Position numbers and translations under genes: made by a program. A DNA stretch of 64,000 nucleotides, taken from contig PWVH01000128.1 of the NCBI GenBank assembly GCA_003563465.1, positions 25,504 through 89,503 of the forward strand. The letters run 5' to 3'. Shown here piece after piece: positions 37,268 through 60,436 of the stretch. A model generated the notes under the pieces. That model worked only from the letters and a program-made list of their open reading frames with translations. It searched no databases and was not told where the DNA came from. Every line of letters begins with the position of its first letter. The first letter of the stretch is position 1. This DNA comes from Coriobacteriaceae bacterium. Lineage in GTDB: Bacteria > Actinomycetota > Coriobacteriia > Anaerosomatales > SLCP01.

Positions 37268-37406
37268 TGCCCTCATCTTCCAGGCCGGTAAAACCTGCCG
37301 AGACTTGGCACCGTGCGCTCATTTCAGCGTCGGTTGCCGGGGCTTCGCGGGGCTCGGTCCCTCCACCCTCTGCGGTCTTCGCGCGACCGCCTCTTGATGA
37401 GCACCG
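37268..37406 (-). promoter_or_regulatory. SAM-I (S-box) riboswitch
   Basis: Minus strand reads GCTCATCAAGAGGCGG..GCAGAGGGTGGAGGGACCGAGCCCCGCGAAGCCCCGGCAACCG..GGTGCCAAGTCTCGGCAG..GGAAGATGAGGGC. All hallmark S-box blocks are present, and it lies upstream of metK. Confidence 0.9.
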
Positions 37407-39106: not shown

Positions 39107-39180
39107 TGGGGCGTCGTCTAATGGTAGGACAGCGGATTCTGGTTCCGTAAGTGGGGGTTCGACTCCTCCCGCCCCAGCCA
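39107..39180 (+). tRNA. tRNA-Gln (anticodon CTG), CCA encoded
   Basis: Hand-folded cloverleaf. Acceptor stem TGGGGCG/CGCCCCA, D stem GTCT/GGAC, anticodon stem GCGGA/TCCGT with loop TTCTGGT, T arm GGGGG-TTCGACT-CCTCC, then discriminator G and CCA. Confidence 0.9.
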
Positions 39181-39197
39181 TTCGATGCGCCGGGCAA

Positions 39198-39274
39198 GGC
39201 CCGTTAGTCTAGTGGACAAGGACGCCGCCCTCTCAAGGCGGAGATCACGGGTTCGAATCCCGTACGGGCTACCA
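39198..39274 (+). tRNA. tRNA-Glu (anticodon CTC), CCA encoded
   Basis: Acceptor stem GGCCCGT/ACGGGCT, anticodon stem CCGCC/GGCGG with loop CTCTCAA, and T arm ACGGG-TTCGAATC-CCGT. It is closely collinear with E. coli tRNA-Glu. Confidence 0.9.
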
Positions 39275-39284
39275 TACCGACATT

Positions 39285-39314
39285 AAGGAACGCCTTTTCG
39301 GGCGTTCCTTTTGC
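39285..39314 (+). terminator. rho-independent terminator after tRNA-Glu
   Basis: AAGGAACGCC-TTTTCG-GGCGTTCCTT followed by TTTG. Confidence 0.7.
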
Positions 39315-39370
39315 AAGCTCTGTGGAGCTTGGAGAGCGATAGCAAAGCTTTCACCTGATAAACTAGATAT

Positions 39371-39720
39371 GGAGTGGGCTGGATGGTCGCGCGGATCTGT
39401 GTGATCCGTGAGGAAAGTCCGGACTCCAAAGGGCAGGGTGCCTGCTAACGGCAGGGCGGGGCGACCCGACGGAAAGTGCCACAGAAAAGAAGACCCCCTG
39501 GTCATGATGGACCAGGGGAAAGCTGAAACGGTGCGGTAAGAGCGCACCAGCGTTGCGGTAACGCAGCGGCTTGGCAAACCCCACCCGGAGCAAGAGCGAA
39601 TAGGAGCGATCAAGGTCGGCCCGGCCGTCGCTCGGGTTAGCTCGCTTGAGGCTGTGGGCGACTGCAACCCCAGATAGATGATCATCCACGACAGAATCCG
39701 GCTTACAGGCCCACTCCACC
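39371..39720 (+). ncRNA. rnpB: RNase P RNA, bacterial type A
   Basis: P1 pairs GGAGTGGGC with GCCCACTCC. It has CR-I GAGGAAAGTCCGGACTCC, GGTAACGC, AAGTGCCACAGAAAA, and CR-V ACAGAATCCGGCTTA. The minus-strand ORFs 39269-39784 and 39363-39806 overlying it are artefacts. Confidence 0.92.
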
Positions 39721-39733
39721 CTGTACATCCGAC

Positions 39734-43893: not shown

Positions 43894-46800
43894 TCAGGAA
43901 TCCTCCTCAGGAGCTCCTGCTCCACCGAGCGACGGTCCCATAGGTCCGCTCGGCACACCGCGTCTAAGCCTTACTGGCGCCCCCGAAGAGGAGCGCACGA
44001 CGTACGGCCGGATATCCTCAGCTATTATCGCCGTTCCCTGCTCGGCATTATTCTGCAACCTCCCTTCTACGAGATAACAGCGATGTTTGACGATGGCCTC
44101 CCCTGCTCGGCGGAGGGAGTCCTCGAAGACCACGACATCCAAAAGACCGCTGGAATCCTCGAGGGTCAGGAAGCACGTGCGTCTTCCCGAGCGAGTCCGG
44201 GGAGTTTGAGCGCGCTCGCGCACTCCGCATACGAGGACACGACTGCGATCGGGCATGCCGGGTAGCTGTTCGGCGAAAGTGATACCGCGGTCAAGCAGGT
44301 CTTCTTCGGCGATATCGAGTGGGTGGCATGTGAGCGAAAGTCCTAGCAACTCGAGCTCGGCTGAGAGCCTGCGTGCGGGCGACCAGCCGCTTACATGCGA
44401 GAGGTCCTCGGCTGGACGCGTGGGAGCGGGAACTAGCGCTAGCACATCGTCATTGATGCTCTCCTCGCGAGCGATAGCGGTCTTGATCCCCGGTAGGAGC
44501 GCCAGCAACTCGTCTCGCGTGGGAGGCCTTCCTCCTTCAGTGATTCCAAGACCATCGAGAGCTCCGATGCTTATCAGGCTCTCGGCAGGGGCTGGCTCCG
44601 CATTCGTACGGCGCAGGAAGTCTGCAAGATCGCGAAAGGGACGGATCTTGCGCTCCGCCTCGATAGTGTCGAGCAGACGGCTGGGCATCGCGTATACATC
44701 CCGCAAGCCCACAAGGATCGCCCGCCCATCTTCTCTTACTGTGTAGCGTATAGCGGAGGTATTGACGTGAGGAGACAGAAGATCGATGCCGTGCCGCCTT
44801 GCGTCGTTTGCGACGAGTCTAGGCGTGTAGAATCCCATAGGCTGGTTGTTCAGGATGGCCGCAGCGAACTCAGCCGGGAAGTATGTGCGCAGCCAGGCGC
44901 TGGCGTAGGAGATCTTAGCAAAACAAGCCGCATGAGCTTTGTTGAAGCCGTAGGCCGCAAAGCCTTTCAGCTGCCGGAAGACCTCCTCGGCGACTTCTGG
45001 GTCTACTCCTCGTTCGATCGCCCGCTCCAAGAAGTAGGCACGTATTCGGCTCATGTCTGCGCGGCTTCGACCTCTGGTCATCGCTCGGCGCAGTGAGTCA
45101 GCTTCTGCGAGATCGAACCCAGCGACGGCCTGTGCTACTAGAAGTACCTGCTCTTGGTAGACGATAACCCCGTAGGAGTCTGAGAGTGACTCGGCCATCG
45201 CAGGATGAGGCACGCTCACATCCTCCAAACCATGACGCCGACGGATGAACGGAGCTATCATCTCGGCTTCGAGTGGCCCGGGACGAAACAGAGATATCGC
45301 CGCGATGATGTCTTCGAAGCACCTCGCGCGAAGTCGCGTGTTGAGGTTGCGTTGACCGCTCGACTCTAGCTGGAAGACCCCCACGGTATCAGCGCGAGCT
45401 ATGGTGTCATACACCTGTTGATCGTCGGGTGTTAAGTCGAACGGCTCCGGCACGGCTTCTTTTCCTACTCGGCTGCGTGCAAGGTGGAGCGTCTCGGTTA
45501 TCGCCGAGTGCATTCGCAGGCCTAGTATGTCCATCTTGACGAGTCCGAGAGCTTCGATGTCATCCTTGTCATACTGCGAGACCACGACGCCCTTGGCTGC
45601 CCACTGCAGCGGCGTCCATGTGTCGACGGGCTCTCGTGTGATGATGAATCCTCCTAGGTGCGTACCTAGGTGCATGGGACAGGCATCGAGTCTCTCGGCA
45701 AGCTCCACCAAAGTCTCATGCCGTTCTTCCTTAAGCGGATGGCTCGCGCACTCGGGATAGGTCTCGAGGACCTCACGGAGTCGGCTGGCTGACGCCCACG
45801 GCAGGTGTCTTGAGAGCGCGTTGACCTCACCGATCGGATACCCGAAAGCTCTTGCTACGGTTCGAACGGCAGAGCGGGCGGTCATCGTGTTCACGGTAGC
45901 GACCATTGCTACGTGCCCGGAGCCGAACCTCTGGTAGATGAAGTCGACGACTTCATCACGACGGGTGGAGTCGAAGTCGATGTCTATGTCGGGCATCTGC
46001 CGCCGAGCTGGATTCAAGAACCGTTCGAAGAGCAGTTCGTGCTCTATCGGATCGGCATCACTCATGCCGAGTACATAGGAAACGATCGAATCCCCCGCAC
46101 TTCCTCGGCCCGAACAGCGTATTCCTTTTCCTCTGGCGTAATCCACGATCTCTTTGACCACGAGGAAGTAGTCGGAGAACCCCAATTCATCAATGATGCC
46201 GAGTTCGTGCTGCAAACGTGCGAACGCTGCTGGACTCACGGGACGATATCGCTTCTCGAGCCCGTGCCATGCAGCTTTAGAGAGGACCGAGTAGGGCGTC
46301 TCACCGGATGGGATATCCGCTGACGGGAAGTGAAAAGACCCGAGTCCGAGATCTAGATCGCAACGCTCGGCAATTTCGAGAGTGGCATCGCACGCCTGCG
46401 GCAACGAGGCGAACATACGCCGCATCTCAGTTGCAGGCTTGAGCCACAGTTCGGCGTTGGGGCGTCGATAAGGACCGGGAAGGCCCATACCTGCCGAAGC
46501 GGCTGCAAGCAAATCGTGTATTCGATAGTCTTCGGGATTCACATAGTGGACGTTGTTGCTAGCGACCGTGGGCAACCCGCATGACTCGGCGAGCGAGGCG
46601 AGCGAGGCGATGTAGCGCGGGCTTTCGGGGGTCAACAGGTTCATGAGTTCGATGTAGAAACTCCCGGGCTTGAAACAATCGGCGAGTCGCATGAGGGCAG
46701 CTCGAGCACGCGCAAGAGAGCCAGCCAAGACTGCCGATCCCACCTCGCCGTTCGGGCAGCCACTCAAACCGACCAGACCCTCTGAGCACTCAGCGAGATC

Positions 46801-47223
46801 TTCTAGGCTCACCACGCTCGACGTCTCAGCAGAACGTATATGAGTCCGTGAGATGAGGCGGCACAGATTGCGATAGCCCGTCAGGTTCTCGGCGAGTAAT
46901 GTGAGGTGGAATCCTATGCCGGCAGCTCGGCCGAAACCCACGCTTGCGGGCAGTGTTAGGGGCTCTCGCGCAGCCCGAGTGCCCTCTTTAGCGTCCAAAC
47001 CGGCTGTCGCAAGCACTATCTCAGCACCGATCACAGGGTGGACGCCGGCTTTCAGTGCCGCTTTGTAGAAACGCAGCGCTCCATAAAGACCCTGGTGATC
47101 GGTGAGCGCTACAGCTTCCATACCGAGTTCGACGCAACGGGTGATGATCTCTTCGATGTTCGCGGCGCCATCACCGAAGCTGAAAGTGGAGTGTGTGTGT
47201 AGATGCATGAAGGAGGCGTCCAT
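43894..47223 (-). CDS. dnaE2: error-prone DNA polymerase III alpha-type subunit DnaE2
   Basis: 1109 aa, which is short for an alpha subunit. It has a PHP N-terminus HLHTHSTFSFGDGAA and a polymerase core. An OB fold lies near the C-terminus and no long tau/beta-binding tail follows it. It lies downstream of an SOS box. Confidence 0.88.
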   Translation of the reverse strand: MDASFMHLHTHSTFSFGDGAANIEEIITRCVELGMEAVALTDHQGLYGALRFYKAALKAGVHPVIGAEIVLATAGLDAKEGTRAAREPLTLPASVGFGRAAGIGFHLTLLAENLTGYRNLCRLISRTHIRSAETSSVVSLEDLAECSEGLVGLSGCPNGEVGSAVLAGSLARARAALMRLADCFKPGSFYIELMNLLTPESPRYIASLASLAESCGLPTVASNNVHYVNPEDYRIHDLLAAASAGMGLPGPYRRPNAELWLKPATEMRRMFASLPQACDATLEIAERCDLDLGLGSFHFPSADIPSGETPYSVLSKAAWHGLEKRYRPVSPAAFARLQHELGIIDELGFSDYFLVVKEIVDYARGKGIRCSGRGSAGDSIVSYVLGMSDADPIEHELLFERFLNPARRQMPDIDIDFDSTRRDEVVDFIYQRFGSGHVAMVATVNTMTARSAVRTVARAFGYPIGEVNALSRHLPWASASRLREVLETYPECASHPLKEERHETLVELAERLDACPMHLGTHLGGFIITREPVDTWTPLQWAAKGVVVSQYDKDDIEALGLVKMDILGLRMHSAITETLHLARSRVGKEAVPEPFDLTPDDQQVYDTIARADTVGVFQLESSGQRNLNTRLRARCFEDIIAAISLFRPGPLEAEMIAPFIRRRHGLEDVSVPHPAMAESLSDSYGVIVYQEQVLLVAQAVAGFDLAEADSLRRAMTRGRSRADMSRIRAYFLERAIERGVDPEVAEEVFRQLKGFAAYGFNKAHAACFAKISYASAWLRTYFPAEFAAAILNNQPMGFYTPRLVANDARRHGIDLLSPHVNTSAIRYTVREDGRAILVGLRDVYAMPSRLLDTIEAERKIRPFRDLADFLRRTNAEPAPAESLISIGALDGLGITEGGRPPTRDELLALLPGIKTAIAREESINDDVLALVPAPTRPAEDLSHVSGWSPARRLSAELELLGLSLTCHPLDIAEEDLLDRGITFAEQLPGMPDRSRVLVCGVRERAQTPRTRSGRRTCFLTLEDSSGLLDVVVFEDSLRRAGEAIVKHRCYLVEGRLQNNAEQGTAIIAEDIRPYVVRSSSGAPVRLRRGVPSGPMGPSLGGAGAPEEDS

Positions 47224-47233
47224 CGGAGCTGTG

Positions 47234-47653
47234 CTAGTCCTGTATGCCGAGGAGAAGCCATCTCCCGTTCAGCCGATCGAACGCCAGGTCGTACGGGCCC
47301 CCTTCGCGCGTCAAAACGCGCCAGCAGCGACGGCTTATGTGCTGCACGGGATCCCACCACGCGTACTCGACGGCCCAACTCTGGACTATCGAATCCACAT
47401 GATATGTTCGCCTGCCTCTGACGAACGTCACCGGACGCCGTTCGTTCACTTCCCAATTGACGAATATCGCTTCACGGACCCGACGGCCTACTCCCGCGTC
47501 ACCTGGATAGTCGAGTTCGGAAGCTCGAAATATCCACGTCGTGCCCAGGAGATCGAGAACGACGAGGCGACGCTCCTCGACAGGCTCGAACAGATCGAGT
47601 GTCCGGGCGCCCAGAATGGGTCGATATCGTTTGATCGCGACATTGCGGCCCAC
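47234..47653 (-). CDS. small protein resembling the C-terminal domain of ImuB, with a beta-clamp-like motif (mini-ImuB candidate)
   Basis: 139 aa with a GTG start and AAGGG 6 nt upstream. It ends 11 nt before dnaE2. The C-terminal half is PVTFVRGRRTYHVDSIVQSWAVEYAWWDP...GRWLLLGIQD, and the N-terminus carries TLDLF. Confidence 0.55.
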   Translation of the reverse strand: MGRNVAIKRYRPILGARTLDLFEPVEERRLVVLDLLGTTWIFRASELDYPGDAGVGRRVREAIFVNWEVNERRPVTFVRGRRTYHVDSIVQSWAVEYAWWDPVQHISRRCWRVLTREGGPYDLAFDRLNGRWLLLGIQD

Positions 47654-47792: not shown

Positions 47793-48455
47793 TCAGGATT
47801 CGTTCTGATCGCCTTTTTCGACCAAGACCCGTTCTGCGACGTCTCGAGCAATCGCGTATTTCGAGCCTTTGACCTCGATGAGCAAGGGGCCCTCGAACGG
47901 AGCCGATTCGCACACCTTGACCTCGGTACCAGGATACATACCGAGAGAGCCAAGGTAATTCAGGATTTCTTCGTTATCCTCGGCCACCTGGAGGATAGTC
48001 GACCGCATACCGCTGGCAAGTTGGGATAAGGAGACTCCTTCGATTGCCACTATCTCGCCTCTGGCCGTAGGAATGGGATGGCCGTGTGGGCATACCGATG
48101 GATTATCCAAGAAATCCTCGAGTGCTTCGATCACCCTGGGCGAGAGTGCATGCTCGAGACGACAGGCGTCCTCATGGGCGTCTTCCCACGGGATACCGAG
48201 GACATCCACGAGTAAGCGCTCGGCGACACGATGACGCCGGATTATGTCTACAGCAAGGGCACGGCCCTCTTCGGTAAGAATCACATCGCTGTCATCGCGA
48301 ATTACGAATCCTCGAGACTCCAGACGTTTCAGAGTGGCGGTTACCGTAGGCCCTGCAACTCCGAGAGCGTGAGCTATGGGCGTCGGTTTGACGACCCCTT
48401 GTTCAGAGAGCTTGTAGATGATCTCCAGGTATTCCTCGAGCGTGGCTGAAGGCAC
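47793..48455 (-). CDS. DtxR/IdeR/MntR-family metal-dependent regulator with C-terminal FeoA/SH3-like domain
   Basis: Contains LEEYLEIIYKL, PTVTATLKRLE, RRHRVAERLL and CPHGHPIP. The start is set at GTG 48453-48455 with GGAGA 7 nt upstream. Confidence 0.88.
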   Translation of the reverse strand: MPSATLEEYLEIIYKLSEQGVVKPTPIAHALGVAGPTVTATLKRLESRGFVIRDDSDVILTEEGRALAVDIIRRHRVAERLLVDVLGIPWEDAHEDACRLEHALSPRVIEALEDFLDNPSVCPHGHPIPTARGEIVAIEGVSLSQLASGMRSTILQVAEDNEEILNYLGSLGMYPGTEVKVCESAPFEGPLLIEVKGSKYAIARDVAERVLVEKGDQNES

Positions 48456-48504
48456 GTGAAATCTCCTAGAATCAAAGGTTTTGAACTTGTGAAGCCGTGT
48501 GGCC

Positions 48505-48533
48505 AGTCTACCTGTGGGGCGGCAAGTCAACAA
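48505..48533 (-). promoter_or_regulatory. putative promoter of the DtxR-family gene
   Basis: Minus strand reads TTGTTG, a 17-nt spacer, then TAGACT. An inverted repeat TCAAA-N3-TTTGA (48472-48484) lies in the 5' UTR. Confidence 0.45.
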
Positions 48534-48659
48534 GGCGAGTTGATTCTCCTGCCTCTTCGGAGTGTTCCTCGGCAGAATACCGTAGAACCGCTTCTGGTTG
48601 CCGTTCGGACTTCGAAAGCGACCGTTCGGCGCATACTCGAGAATTTCTCGAAAAGGCTA

Positions 48660-48688
48660 TTGACCCCCCTTCCGCCTACGTGTAATGT
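48660..48688 (+). promoter_or_regulatory. orphan plus-strand promoter (drives candidate sRNA 1)
   Basis: TTGACC (48660-48665), a 17-nt spacer, then TAATGT (48683-48688). The perfect 15-bp palindrome TCGAGAA-T-TTCTCGA (48637-48651) lies just upstream of the -35 element. Confidence 0.45.
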
Positions 48689-48694
48689 CACAGT

Positions 48695-48895
48695 TGTCCC
48701 GAGAAGTCGGACCTGGCGAGCACCGAAAGGCCGCGTACCAGTAGCCGCCGACGGGGAGCTGTGAGAGAAGGCGCGACGCGAGTTGGCCGGATCGATCGGA
48801 GCCCCAACGGAAGGAAATGGGAAGCGGTTGAGTATGGTAAGACGCGGGCGAGGTTTCTCGGGACACTTCTATGTCCCTGGGGATATCTTCTTTGG
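48695..48895 (+). ncRNA. candidate structured small RNA, class unassigned
   Basis: It lies in a 480-bp gap with no credible ORF. GTCCCGAGAA (48696-48705) pairs with TTCTCGGGAC (48855-48864). Further helices are 48729-48735/48843-48849, 48736-48740/48835-48839 and 48743-48748/48824-48829. There is an 18-nt purine-rich internal loop AACGGAAGGAAAUGGGAA. The 3' end is uncertain. Confidence 0.3.
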
Positions 48896-48934
48896 TTCCG
48901 CGAGAAACCCGTAGTACGGGAGACTGCTCCCGTC

Positions 48935-49300
48935 TCATGGATGATAGGTTATCCGCGCAACCGGTGATTCCCAGACCGCCACCTCGGTTACGCGCACCTC
49001 CGCACCGACCTTTTCGTCGAGCTTCTCGAATACGACACGCGCAAGGTTTTCTGCTGTCGGATTGAGAGAATCGAAGGGCGGAACCTCGTTTAGAAACGCG
49101 TGATCCAAAGGCTCGAGGACTGCTGCAAGATCGTCTTTGAGGCGCTTGAAGTCGTAGACGATTCCGATGTCATCGAGCTCTTCCCCGGAGACAGTGGCCT
49201 CGACGTCCCACGTGTGCCCATGGAGCTCACGGCACTCCCCGGGATACCCGTGCAGAGCATGGGCGGCGTCGAAATGACTTTTCACTCTCAGCTCATACAT
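48935..49300 (-). CDS. queD: 6-carboxy-5,6,7,8-tetrahydropterin synthase QueD
   Basis: 121 aa with HFDAAHAL and CRELHGHTW. Confidence 0.92.
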   Translation of the reverse strand: MYELRVKSHFDAAHALHGYPGECRELHGHTWDVEATVSGEELDDIGIVYDFKRLKDDLAAVLEPLDHAFLNEVPPFDSLNPTAENLARVVFEKLDEKVGAEVRVTEVAVWESPVARITYHP

Positions 49301-60290: not shown

Positions 60291-60304
60291 AATCCCGTGC
60301 CCGT

Positions 60305-60422
60305 CCTTCCTTCTCCCATCCAGACTCTCACTGTCGGCCCCGGGAATTCTCCGGGTCGGCCCCTGTTGGGGTTCGCGGGCTGTCACCGCCGGTGGGGAGT
60401 TTCACCCCGCCCTGAAGAAAAG
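60305..60422 (-). promoter_or_regulatory. FMN riboswitch (RFN element)
   Basis: Minus strand reads CTTCAGGGCGGGGTGAAACTCCCCACCGGCGGTGACAGCCCGCGAACC...GGGGCCGACCCGGAGAATTCCCGGGGCCGACAGTGAGAGTCTGGATGGGAGAAGGAAGG. This is a near-consensus RFN element directly upstream of ribD. A TACAAT -10-like hexamer lies at 60431-60436. Confidence 0.92.
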
Positions 60423-60436
60423 ATGTGCATATTGTA

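Follow-up and report, generated by a model that had tools for sequence, protein, structure and literature searches.

A covarying, rod-shaped RNA between queD and a DtxR-family gene: a predicted new RNA family of Coriobacteriia-type Actinomycetota and tentative candidate for RNA polymerase binding

The gap between queD and a DtxR-family gene, both encoded on the minus strand in a 64,000-nucleotide stretch of Coriobacteriaceae bacterium contig PWVH01000128.1 (positions 25,504 to 89,503, referred to as the window), raises the question of whether it holds an RNA gene of its own and, if so, what such an RNA would do. A preliminary description, made from the sequence alone, had put the gap at roughly 480 bp without a credible open reading frame (ORF) and had proposed that a plus-strand promoter drives a structured RNA there. 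The gap was found to measure 479 bp (48456-48934), with no frame-specific ORF; within the RNA region no frame was specifically open or conserved, the minus strand being open in all three frames because it is purine-poor. The queD gene (48935-49300, minus strand) converges on the RNA gene, while the true start of the DtxR-family gene is a GTG at 48455, preceded at six bases by the ribosome-binding site AGGAGA, and not the upstream TTG of the mechanical ORF. As the feature has homologues, strong covariation and a positionally conserved promoter, it lies far beyond chance, and these sequence comparisons indicate that the gap almost certainly holds a real, free-standing RNA gene on the plus strand (Table 1).

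Guided by the DtxR-family protein, a scan of GTDB genomes returned two relatives (60% and 57% amino-acid identity). Over window positions 48694-48876, the nucleotide identity of their DtxR-adjacent spacers was 79% and 68%, the RNA being better conserved in these relatives than the flanking protein. The two best-conserved loops supplied a degenerate DNA pattern that matched 113 metagenome stretches. At E<1e-6, a covariance model (CM) built from three sequences gave 90 sites, spread over 82 sources, with more in the remaining loci. The search pattern forces conservation of the central loop in the metagenome set; an unbiased set, comprising eight distinct loci fetched by DtxR protein similarity alone, contained the RNA in every case (8/8, 116-159 bits). 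In total, about 100 homologues of 177-191 nt were collected from metagenomic contigs and contigs of metagenome-assembled genomes, with identities to the window copy of 37-83% (median 66%) and a GC content of 45-68%. The window copy scored 202 bits against CM R1 and 176 bits against CM R2, with 18.7 bits for the antisense strand, and was the only copy found in the window with CM R2. For both main groups of gene context, the nearest proteins carried NCBI names of Anaerosomatales, Coriobacteriia and Actinomycetota, and the relatives of the neighbour protein in the low-GC group were also from Actinomycetota. More distant DtxR-gene loci (Chloroflexota, Archaea and other Actinomycetota; L003-L025) did not contain the RNA, and a pattern match on a viral contig (L140), which had no CM match, was set aside as chance. 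One of the carriers, MCHG01000001.1 (L026; 2.04 Mb, GC 65%), derives from a methanogenic Antarctic permafrost enrichment metagenome (PMC5146446). Several contigs assembled from short reads end in the RNA gene or a few bases from it (L139, a Logan SRR490155 contig, and L033, L035, L049, L056 and L073), as expected if co-occurring strains or copies are nearly identical at this point.

The preliminary description had folded the predicted transcript by hand into an extended rod, and a single rod of -84.4 kcal/mol was indeed obtained for the plus strand, compared with -57.6 kcal/mol for the minus strand. This difference, like that between the sense and antisense CM scores, is in keeping with the use of G-U pairs and identifies plus as the RNA strand. 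Taken as a single sequence, the fold was not above chance (z = -1.55; 16 of 200 shuffles folded equally well). The comparative evidence, however, was strong: the consensus comprised 52 nested pairs, arranged as an unbranched series of 11 helices, and among 89 distinct sequences 88% of cells were paired, 37 of the 52 pairs showed changes on both sides, and the covariation score was 0.39. These values were reached by none of 500 shuffles, and when partners were slid by 1-3 columns the score was only about 0.05, with 12-16 compensatory pairs left, so that covariation, which had been proposed as a check on the helices, came out in their favour. The 89-sequence alignment was fitted to the CM, which favours the structure; the same unbranched rod was returned by RNAalifold from 88 sequences and likewise from a plain MAFFT alignment of three, and the first three sequences alone contained 14 compensatory pairs.

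The closing helix (P1), which had been described as 10 bp (48696-48705/48855-48864), proved to be longer, forming a perfect 11-bp inverted repeat (48695-48705/48855-48865) and 14 pairs when G-U pairs are counted. Its cells were 99% paired and 7 of the 14 pairs were compensatory (the sixth changing from G-C to A-U or C-G), and its sequence was nearly invariant among homologues. Two other elements of the hand-made fold were not upheld. The GGA motifs occurred at chance level (8 observed, 5.7 +/- 2.0 in shuffles, p = 0.18), and the supposed 18-nt purine-rich internal loop is not one loop, since the consensus structure places two short helices there.

From its 5' end, the rod runs through P1, short helices with small loops, a GAAAG/GAGUA loop, a helix of 5-6 bp and the centre to an apical arm. 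The closing arm measures 42 nt and the apical arm about 68 nt, the latter being variable yet covarying and capped by C-GYRA-G, in which CG..AG is at least 90% conserved and the pair beside the loop varies (GC:30, CG:21, UG:19). In the first conserved loop, the GAAA and (G)UA columns were at least 90% conserved, with a mean unpaired probability of 0.8-0.9 in ensemble prediction. At the centre, GUACCAGUAGC faces GAAAYGGGAA, and both GUACCAG and GAAAYGGRAA were invariant in the eight loci chosen without reference to the RNA sequence. Ensembles for all homologues predicted that CC 48738-48739 pairs with GG 48819-48820 (unpaired probability near 0), which would leave two loops at the centre, GUA/GAA (3x3) and AGUAG/AAAY (roughly 5x4); as the two C-G pairs are invariant, covariation speaks neither for nor against them. 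Both the GAAA/AGUA and the GUA/GAA loop resemble, in sequence only, the sarcin-ricin/loop-E signature (AGUA opposite GAA).

The promoter that had been read on the plus strand was present as described, and the pattern TTGNNN-N16-19-TANNNT-N5-9, followed by GUCCC at the RNA 5' end, was found in all 87 homologues with enough upstream sequence. The -35 element is mostly TTGAC, with AC following TTG in about 77% of homologues. The RNA is predicted to begin at U48695 or G48696, 7-8 nt past the -10 element, and transcription would start at the first base of the closing helix from a strong promoter of the primary-sigma type. A generic (E. coli-type) sigma-70 scan left the window promoter uncalled because its -10 element agrees with TATAAT at only 3/6 positions.

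Upstream of the promoter, a perfect palindrome, TCGAGAATTTCTCGA, had been noted 8 bp from the -35 element and interpreted as an operator. The palindrome is there, but it is specific to the window and not conserved in homologues, being a local elaboration of a T-tract/A-tract. What is conserved, in GC-rich genomes, is ATTTC-N2-5-GAAAA at -17 to -6 from the -35 hexamer, or about -53 to -42 from the RNA start, which from its position and composition looks more like a UP element than an operator, rrn-type promoters serving as the model for both properties. Further upstream lie three phased CCGTTC repeats that the preliminary description did not mention. Counted from the first T of the -35 element, they lie at -80, -59 and -38, and their CC(G) core is kept in 82-95% of the homologous loci compared (83-84). 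The repeats were also seen in loci fetched by DtxR protein similarity alone and in lineages with other neighbours. No such triple was found at the promoters of the tRNAs and RNase P RNA in the window, and its other matches there were at chance level, so that stable-RNA promoters of the window do not share it in general. The upstream repeats are complementary to parts of the RNA body at 71-73% over about 21 nt, which was judged to be chance. The repeats are presumed to be activator sites, and the resemblance of the CCGTTC unit to the GTTCACC unit of Streptomyces PHO boxes hints, by analogy, at an activator of the OmpR/PhoB type. The UP-like tract would boost transcription, and a factor bound at the three sites probably would too.

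Behind the closing helix, the pyrimidine-rich tail was conserved in 88 homologues and predicted to be unpaired. As low-GC homologues show an obvious U run, either directly past the closing helix (L037, L050) or past a short second hairpin (L124, L030), the helix and tail probably form an intrinsic terminator, and the transcript would most likely end in the U-rich tail; a generic terminator scan made no call in the gap. A hairpin competing for the 3' strand of the closing helix (GGGAC/GTCCC) had also been noted. It can form in the window, but at least five consecutive pairs were possible in only 36 of 88 homologues, which makes a conserved switch improbable. Another hairpin stands between the RNA and the queD stop codon (48935-48937), with a GC-rich hairpin at the equivalent position in many homologues; it is likely to terminate queD, possibly acting in both directions, and is skipped by the terminator scan because it has no T run.

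That the RNA is not a cis-leader, as had been claimed, was borne out. A cis-regulatory leader or riboswitch would precede a gene on the same strand, whereas the next gene downstream is the convergent queD, and the downstream genes vary among lineages. There is strong support for a stand-alone gene whose RNA neither codes for protein nor serves as a cis-leader. The queD - RNA - DtxR gene context was seen in 65 of 91 loci, with the RNA divergent from the regulator gene and the order NIF3 - DUF164 - RNase H - queD - RNA - DtxR gene, in some cases continued by feoB or by DUF6504 - dnaE2. In the other 26 loci the neighbours were gatB, 5'-nucleotidase and MFS genes or, in the low-GC group, DUF1844 and NlpC/P60 genes; these loci, which include a second Coriobacteriia lineage and a low-GC lineage, have neither queD nor the DtxR gene and keep the RNA, the promoter and the CCGTTC repeats. 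Because contexts vary, distant DtxR loci are without the RNA, and no IdeR/DtxR-type box occurs within 3 mismatches anywhere in the window, the RNA is, on this comparative evidence, independent of its neighbours and a gene in its own right rather than an accessory of DtxR or queD. Two inverted copies flank the DtxR gene in one sub-lineage (L099, 1175-1363 on the minus and 2476-2662 on the plus strand; likewise L075, L060, L104, L119 and L054), and further double copies were found in tandem (L103) or 1.6 kb apart (L127). The second copy differs in its apical arm and, in the central loop, has AGCUGC for AGYAGC.

No Rfam 15 family matched the RNA in cmscan at gathering thresholds, in the whole window or in 15 homologous loci, so that this check, also proposed in the preliminary description, revealed no known element at the RNA. 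The sole Rfam matches at the RNA (mir-1233, ZEB2_AS1_2, a terminator-like hairpin of ctRNA and nuclear RNase P) were chance, and the conserved strings of the RNA matched only unrelated primers in the searchable literature. Signal recognition particle (SRP) RNA, Y RNA, retron RNA and riboswitches were considered and rejected, there being no Rfam hit, no Ro or reverse-transcriptase gene nearby and no same-strand downstream gene; in addition, SRP RNA has a GNAR loop where this RNA has its GYRA cap. By these comparisons, the RNA is a new family of about 100 members without a match in Rfam 15. Strong covariation, invariant loops and an unusual promoter architecture make it a well-supported structured RNA, and its addition to family databases could improve the annotation of Coriobacteriia-type genomes.

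As to function, the reading tentatively placed first, although with a probability short of even, is that of a 6S/Ms1-like polymerase-binding RNA. It is favoured by the length, the long hairpin, the central loop at nt 41-51 and the reported lack of a canonical 6S RNA in Actinobacteria. The position of that loop matches that of the bubble in E. coli 6S RNA. Like 6S RNA (ssrS; RF00013), the RNA is stand-alone and, at 177-191 nt, within roughly 160-200 nt; it has its own primary-sigma promoter, ending 7-8 nt before the rod, and a terminator-like tail directly after it. Its shape, too, is that of a single long and irregular hairpin, in which a central loop bordered by G-C pairs, about 42 nt from the 5' end, separates the closing arm from the apical arm; its closing helix reads GAGA/UCUC, as in E. 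coli. Independence of neighbour genes is shared as well, and some genomes have two paralogues, as for Bacillus 6S-1/6S-2. When CM R2 was run with filters off on a 1.4-kb locus, E. coli ssrS ranked first and was matched end to end, at only 6.1 bits and E of about 0.04. In the mechanism that we infer, with its UP element, activator sites, terminator and abundant product, the RNA would act as a protein-binding decoy that docks into RNA polymerase and tunes global transcription, the docking surface being a fixed geometry of 42-nt closing arm, invariant central loop and apical arm of about 68 nt. Canonical 6S RNA is widespread in bacteria and has been reported as not found in Actinobacteria, where the clade-specific RNAs Ms1 and CoRP bind RNA polymerase in its stead; according to one proposal, an abundant RNA associated with polymerase exists in every species (PMC9130861, PMC11077062). 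The present RNA may be the 6S-type polymerase-binding RNA that Actinomycetota seemed to lack, and is a candidate for that role in environmental Coriobacteriia (Anaerosomatales/OPB41-type) and related lineages, which are common in sediments, groundwater and permafrost and almost unstudied experimentally.

Several observations weigh against polymerase binding. Neither RF00013 nor any other Rfam 15 family matched at E<=10 in stretches of about 200-600 nt from the window and from low-GC loci (L124, L050), and in the ssrS locus CM R2 gave 5.2 bits for the antisense strand, while chance matches in the window reached 12.7 bits. No large open bubble is predicted in the centre of the RNA; unlike that of 6S RNA, its loop has 10 nt on the 5' side and 9 nt on the 3' side and is predicted to be split into 3x3 and about 5x4 parts. 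The loop-E-like modules, the GNRA cap and the three phased upstream repeats are further differences from 6S RNA. The closing helix and loops are nearly invariant in primary sequence, whereas 6S RNAs conserve shape rather than sequence (PMC11077062). Furthermore, the loops look, in sequence, like structured non-Watson-Crick modules, a feature that would fit recognition by a different RNA-binding protein. The earlier suggestion of a 6S-type or protein-sequestering RNA is plausible from size and shape, but is matched neither by an Rfam 6S hit nor by a predicted open bubble. If the RNA does bind polymerase without such a bubble, it would widen the range of ways in which RNA mimics promoter DNA.

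Known RNAs thought to act through protein binding offer partial parallels. Ms1/MTS2823 (Mycobacterium, Streptomyces and many Actinobacteria) is likewise a single-gene unit with a sigma-A-like promoter, a long hairpin and a central loop. Ms1 is, however, about 300 nt long (PMC4191392), as opposed to 177-191 nt here, it lies between oxidoreductase and HAD-IB hydrolase genes (PMC9130861), and it showed no sequence or model similarity to the present RNA; these flanking genes (oxidoreductase; HAD-IB hydrolase/phosphoserine phosphatase) are not those found here. CoRP of Corynebacterium, an abundant, lineage-restricted structured RNA from an actinobacterial group in which neither 6S nor Ms1 was found, and a precedent for clade-specific polymerase-binding RNAs, is 516 nt long, flanked by tRNAs and cleaved into two fragments (PMC11077062), and thus differs in size, context and shape. 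Ms1 and CoRP are functional analogues in other Actinobacteria and not relatives. CsrB/RsmZ RNAs are also non-coding and thought to act via protein binding, but show numerous GGA motifs, each in the loop of its own hairpin, whereas the present RNA is a continuous rod with one hairpin loop and GGA at chance level.

It is also possible, if on balance doubtful, that deep-branching, uncultivated Actinomycetota have here a class of abundant ribonucleoprotein RNA that has not been described before, the RNA being no 6S homologue. In that case the rigid 176-nt rod, with its two sarcin-ricin-like modules and invariant central loop, would recruit a novel partner, and expression would be driven by the dedicated promoter, the UP-like tract and the three phased CCGTTC activator sites. 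A reading ranked second to polymerase binding, and in itself considered rather unlikely, has the RNA serving as scaffold or sponge for some non-polymerase protein (ribosomal-protein-like, dsRNA (double-stranded RNA)-binding or RNase-type), bound through the GAAA/AGUA and GUA/GAA sarcin-ricin/loop-E-like modules, the AGUAG/AAAY loop and the invariant closing helix. Loops and closing helix are conserved in sequence and not only in pairing, across 37-83% identity and 45-68% GC; the loops are small, purine-rich and symmetric, as in structured non-canonical modules; and the 6S model was not matched. However, the three gene contexts share no linked gene that could be a candidate partner, and the motif assignments are resemblances of sequence only. 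The invariance of the central loop is partly forced by the search pattern in the metagenome set, yet it holds in the eight unbiased loci. Should the partner be such a protein, the RNA would define a new ribonucleoprotein.

Both of the remaining functional readings rank well behind. An improbable one is that of a trans-acting base-pairing regulator, in which the rod would be a stabilising body and the single-stranded tail, ACACCUCUAUUCUC in many homologues, an anti-Shine-Dalgarno-like seed for pairing with purine-rich ribosome-binding sites. The tail is conserved and predicted to be unpaired, and about half of the homologues contain CCUC in it. In about half of the homologues, too, the end of the closing helix and the tail (GGGACACCUCUAUUCU) match at 12/16 positions the 3' end of E. 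coli 16S rRNA (GGAUCACCUCCUUUCU), a match that takes in most of the anti-Shine-Dalgarno core. Yet the window tail (ACACUUCUAUGUCC) and many others are without CCUC, a U-rich tail behind a strong helix is more simply a terminator tract, and a 176-nt covarying rod with invariant loops exceeds the needs of a seed carrier. Less probable still is a metal-responsive small RNA or antisense element, controlled by the DtxR-family protein or acting on the convergent queD transcript. The prevailing queD - RNA - DtxR gene order with its divergent RNA, the two copies flanking the regulator gene in one sub-lineage, and feoB just downstream of the regulator in several relatives would fit such a role. The 26 loci that keep RNA, promoter and repeats without queD or the DtxR gene, the distant DtxR loci without the RNA, the missing IdeR/DtxR box and the non-conserved palindrome speak against it, and neither a regulator operator in the promoter nor a constant linkage to the regulator, as for RyhB, was found. 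That there is no functional RNA, the element being a chance fold in a long spacer, repetitive or mobile DNA, or an imperfect palindrome that matters only as DNA, might be read from the unremarkable single-sequence z-score, the empty promoter and terminator scans and the frequent contig breaks, but is effectively refuted by the compensatory changes, strand-specific G-U pairing, positionally conserved promoter, conservation above that of flanking protein genes, single window copy and lack of terminal repeats or a transposase.

Table 1. Features of the RNA gene and its surroundings, in window coordinates.
Feature	Position	Strand	Description
Three phased repeats	48579-48631	+	Consensus aCCGTTCrnC; copies CCGTAGAAC at 48580, CCGTTCGGAC at 48601 and CCGTTCGGCG at 48622, 21 bp apart; putative activator sites
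AT-rich tract TCGAGAATTTCTCGAAAAG	48637-48655	+	Just 5' of -35; includes palindrome 48637-48651; UP-element-like
Promoter	48660-48688	+	-35 TTGACC 48660-48665, 17-nt spacer, -10 TAATGT 48683-48688 (actinobacterial TANNNT type)
RNA gene	48695-48876	+	Rod of about 176 nt and short pyrimidine-rich tail; conserved part ends near 48877
Closing helix P1, 5' strand UGUCCCGAGAAGUC	48695-48708	+	Pairs with 48852-48865
Conserved internal loop, 5' strand GAAAG	48725-48729	+	Opposite UGAGUAU 48829-48835
Central loop, 5' strand GUACCAGUAGC	48735-48745	+	About nt 41-51 from the 5' end
Apical hairpin CGAC-GCGA-GUUG	48774-48785	+	GNRA tetraloop, consensus C-GYRA-G
Central loop, 3' strand GAAAUGGGAA	48814-48823	+	Falls in the 18-nt purine-rich loop of the preliminary description
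Conserved internal loop, 3' strand UGAGUAU	48829-48835	+	Opposite GAAAG 48725-48729
Closing helix P1, 3' strand GGUUUCUCGGGACA	48852-48865	+	Pairs with 48695-48708
Alternative hairpin GGGACA/UGUCCC	48860-48877	+	Noted in the preliminary description
Pyrimidine-rich tail CACUUCUAUGUCCCU	48866-48880	+	Family consensus ACAC-YU-SU-WU-KYYC
Hairpin ACGGGAG-ACUG-CUCCCGU	48906-48923		Between RNA and queD stop codon

Some further observations concern the surrounding genes. In the relatives L141-L143 and L147-L150, feoB directly follows the DtxR-family gene, which suggests from gene order that the protein regulates iron (Fe2+ uptake); the window copy has no feoB there. A DUF6504 gene (47234-47653, minus strand) lies directly upstream of a gene for a 1109-aa DnaE2-type polymerase (43894-47223, minus strand). 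This pairing is kept in most syntenic loci, with a Y-family polymerase gene nearby in L150, and looks like a mutasome-type cassette. Elsewhere in the window, Rfam identified two tRNAs with a class A RNase P RNA (39107-39721, plus strand), a SAM (S-adenosylmethionine) riboswitch (37270-37403, minus strand) and an FMN (flavin mononucleotide) riboswitch (60304-60423, minus strand). In L053, an FMN riboswitch lies at a similar distance from the RNA, pointing to long-range synteny.

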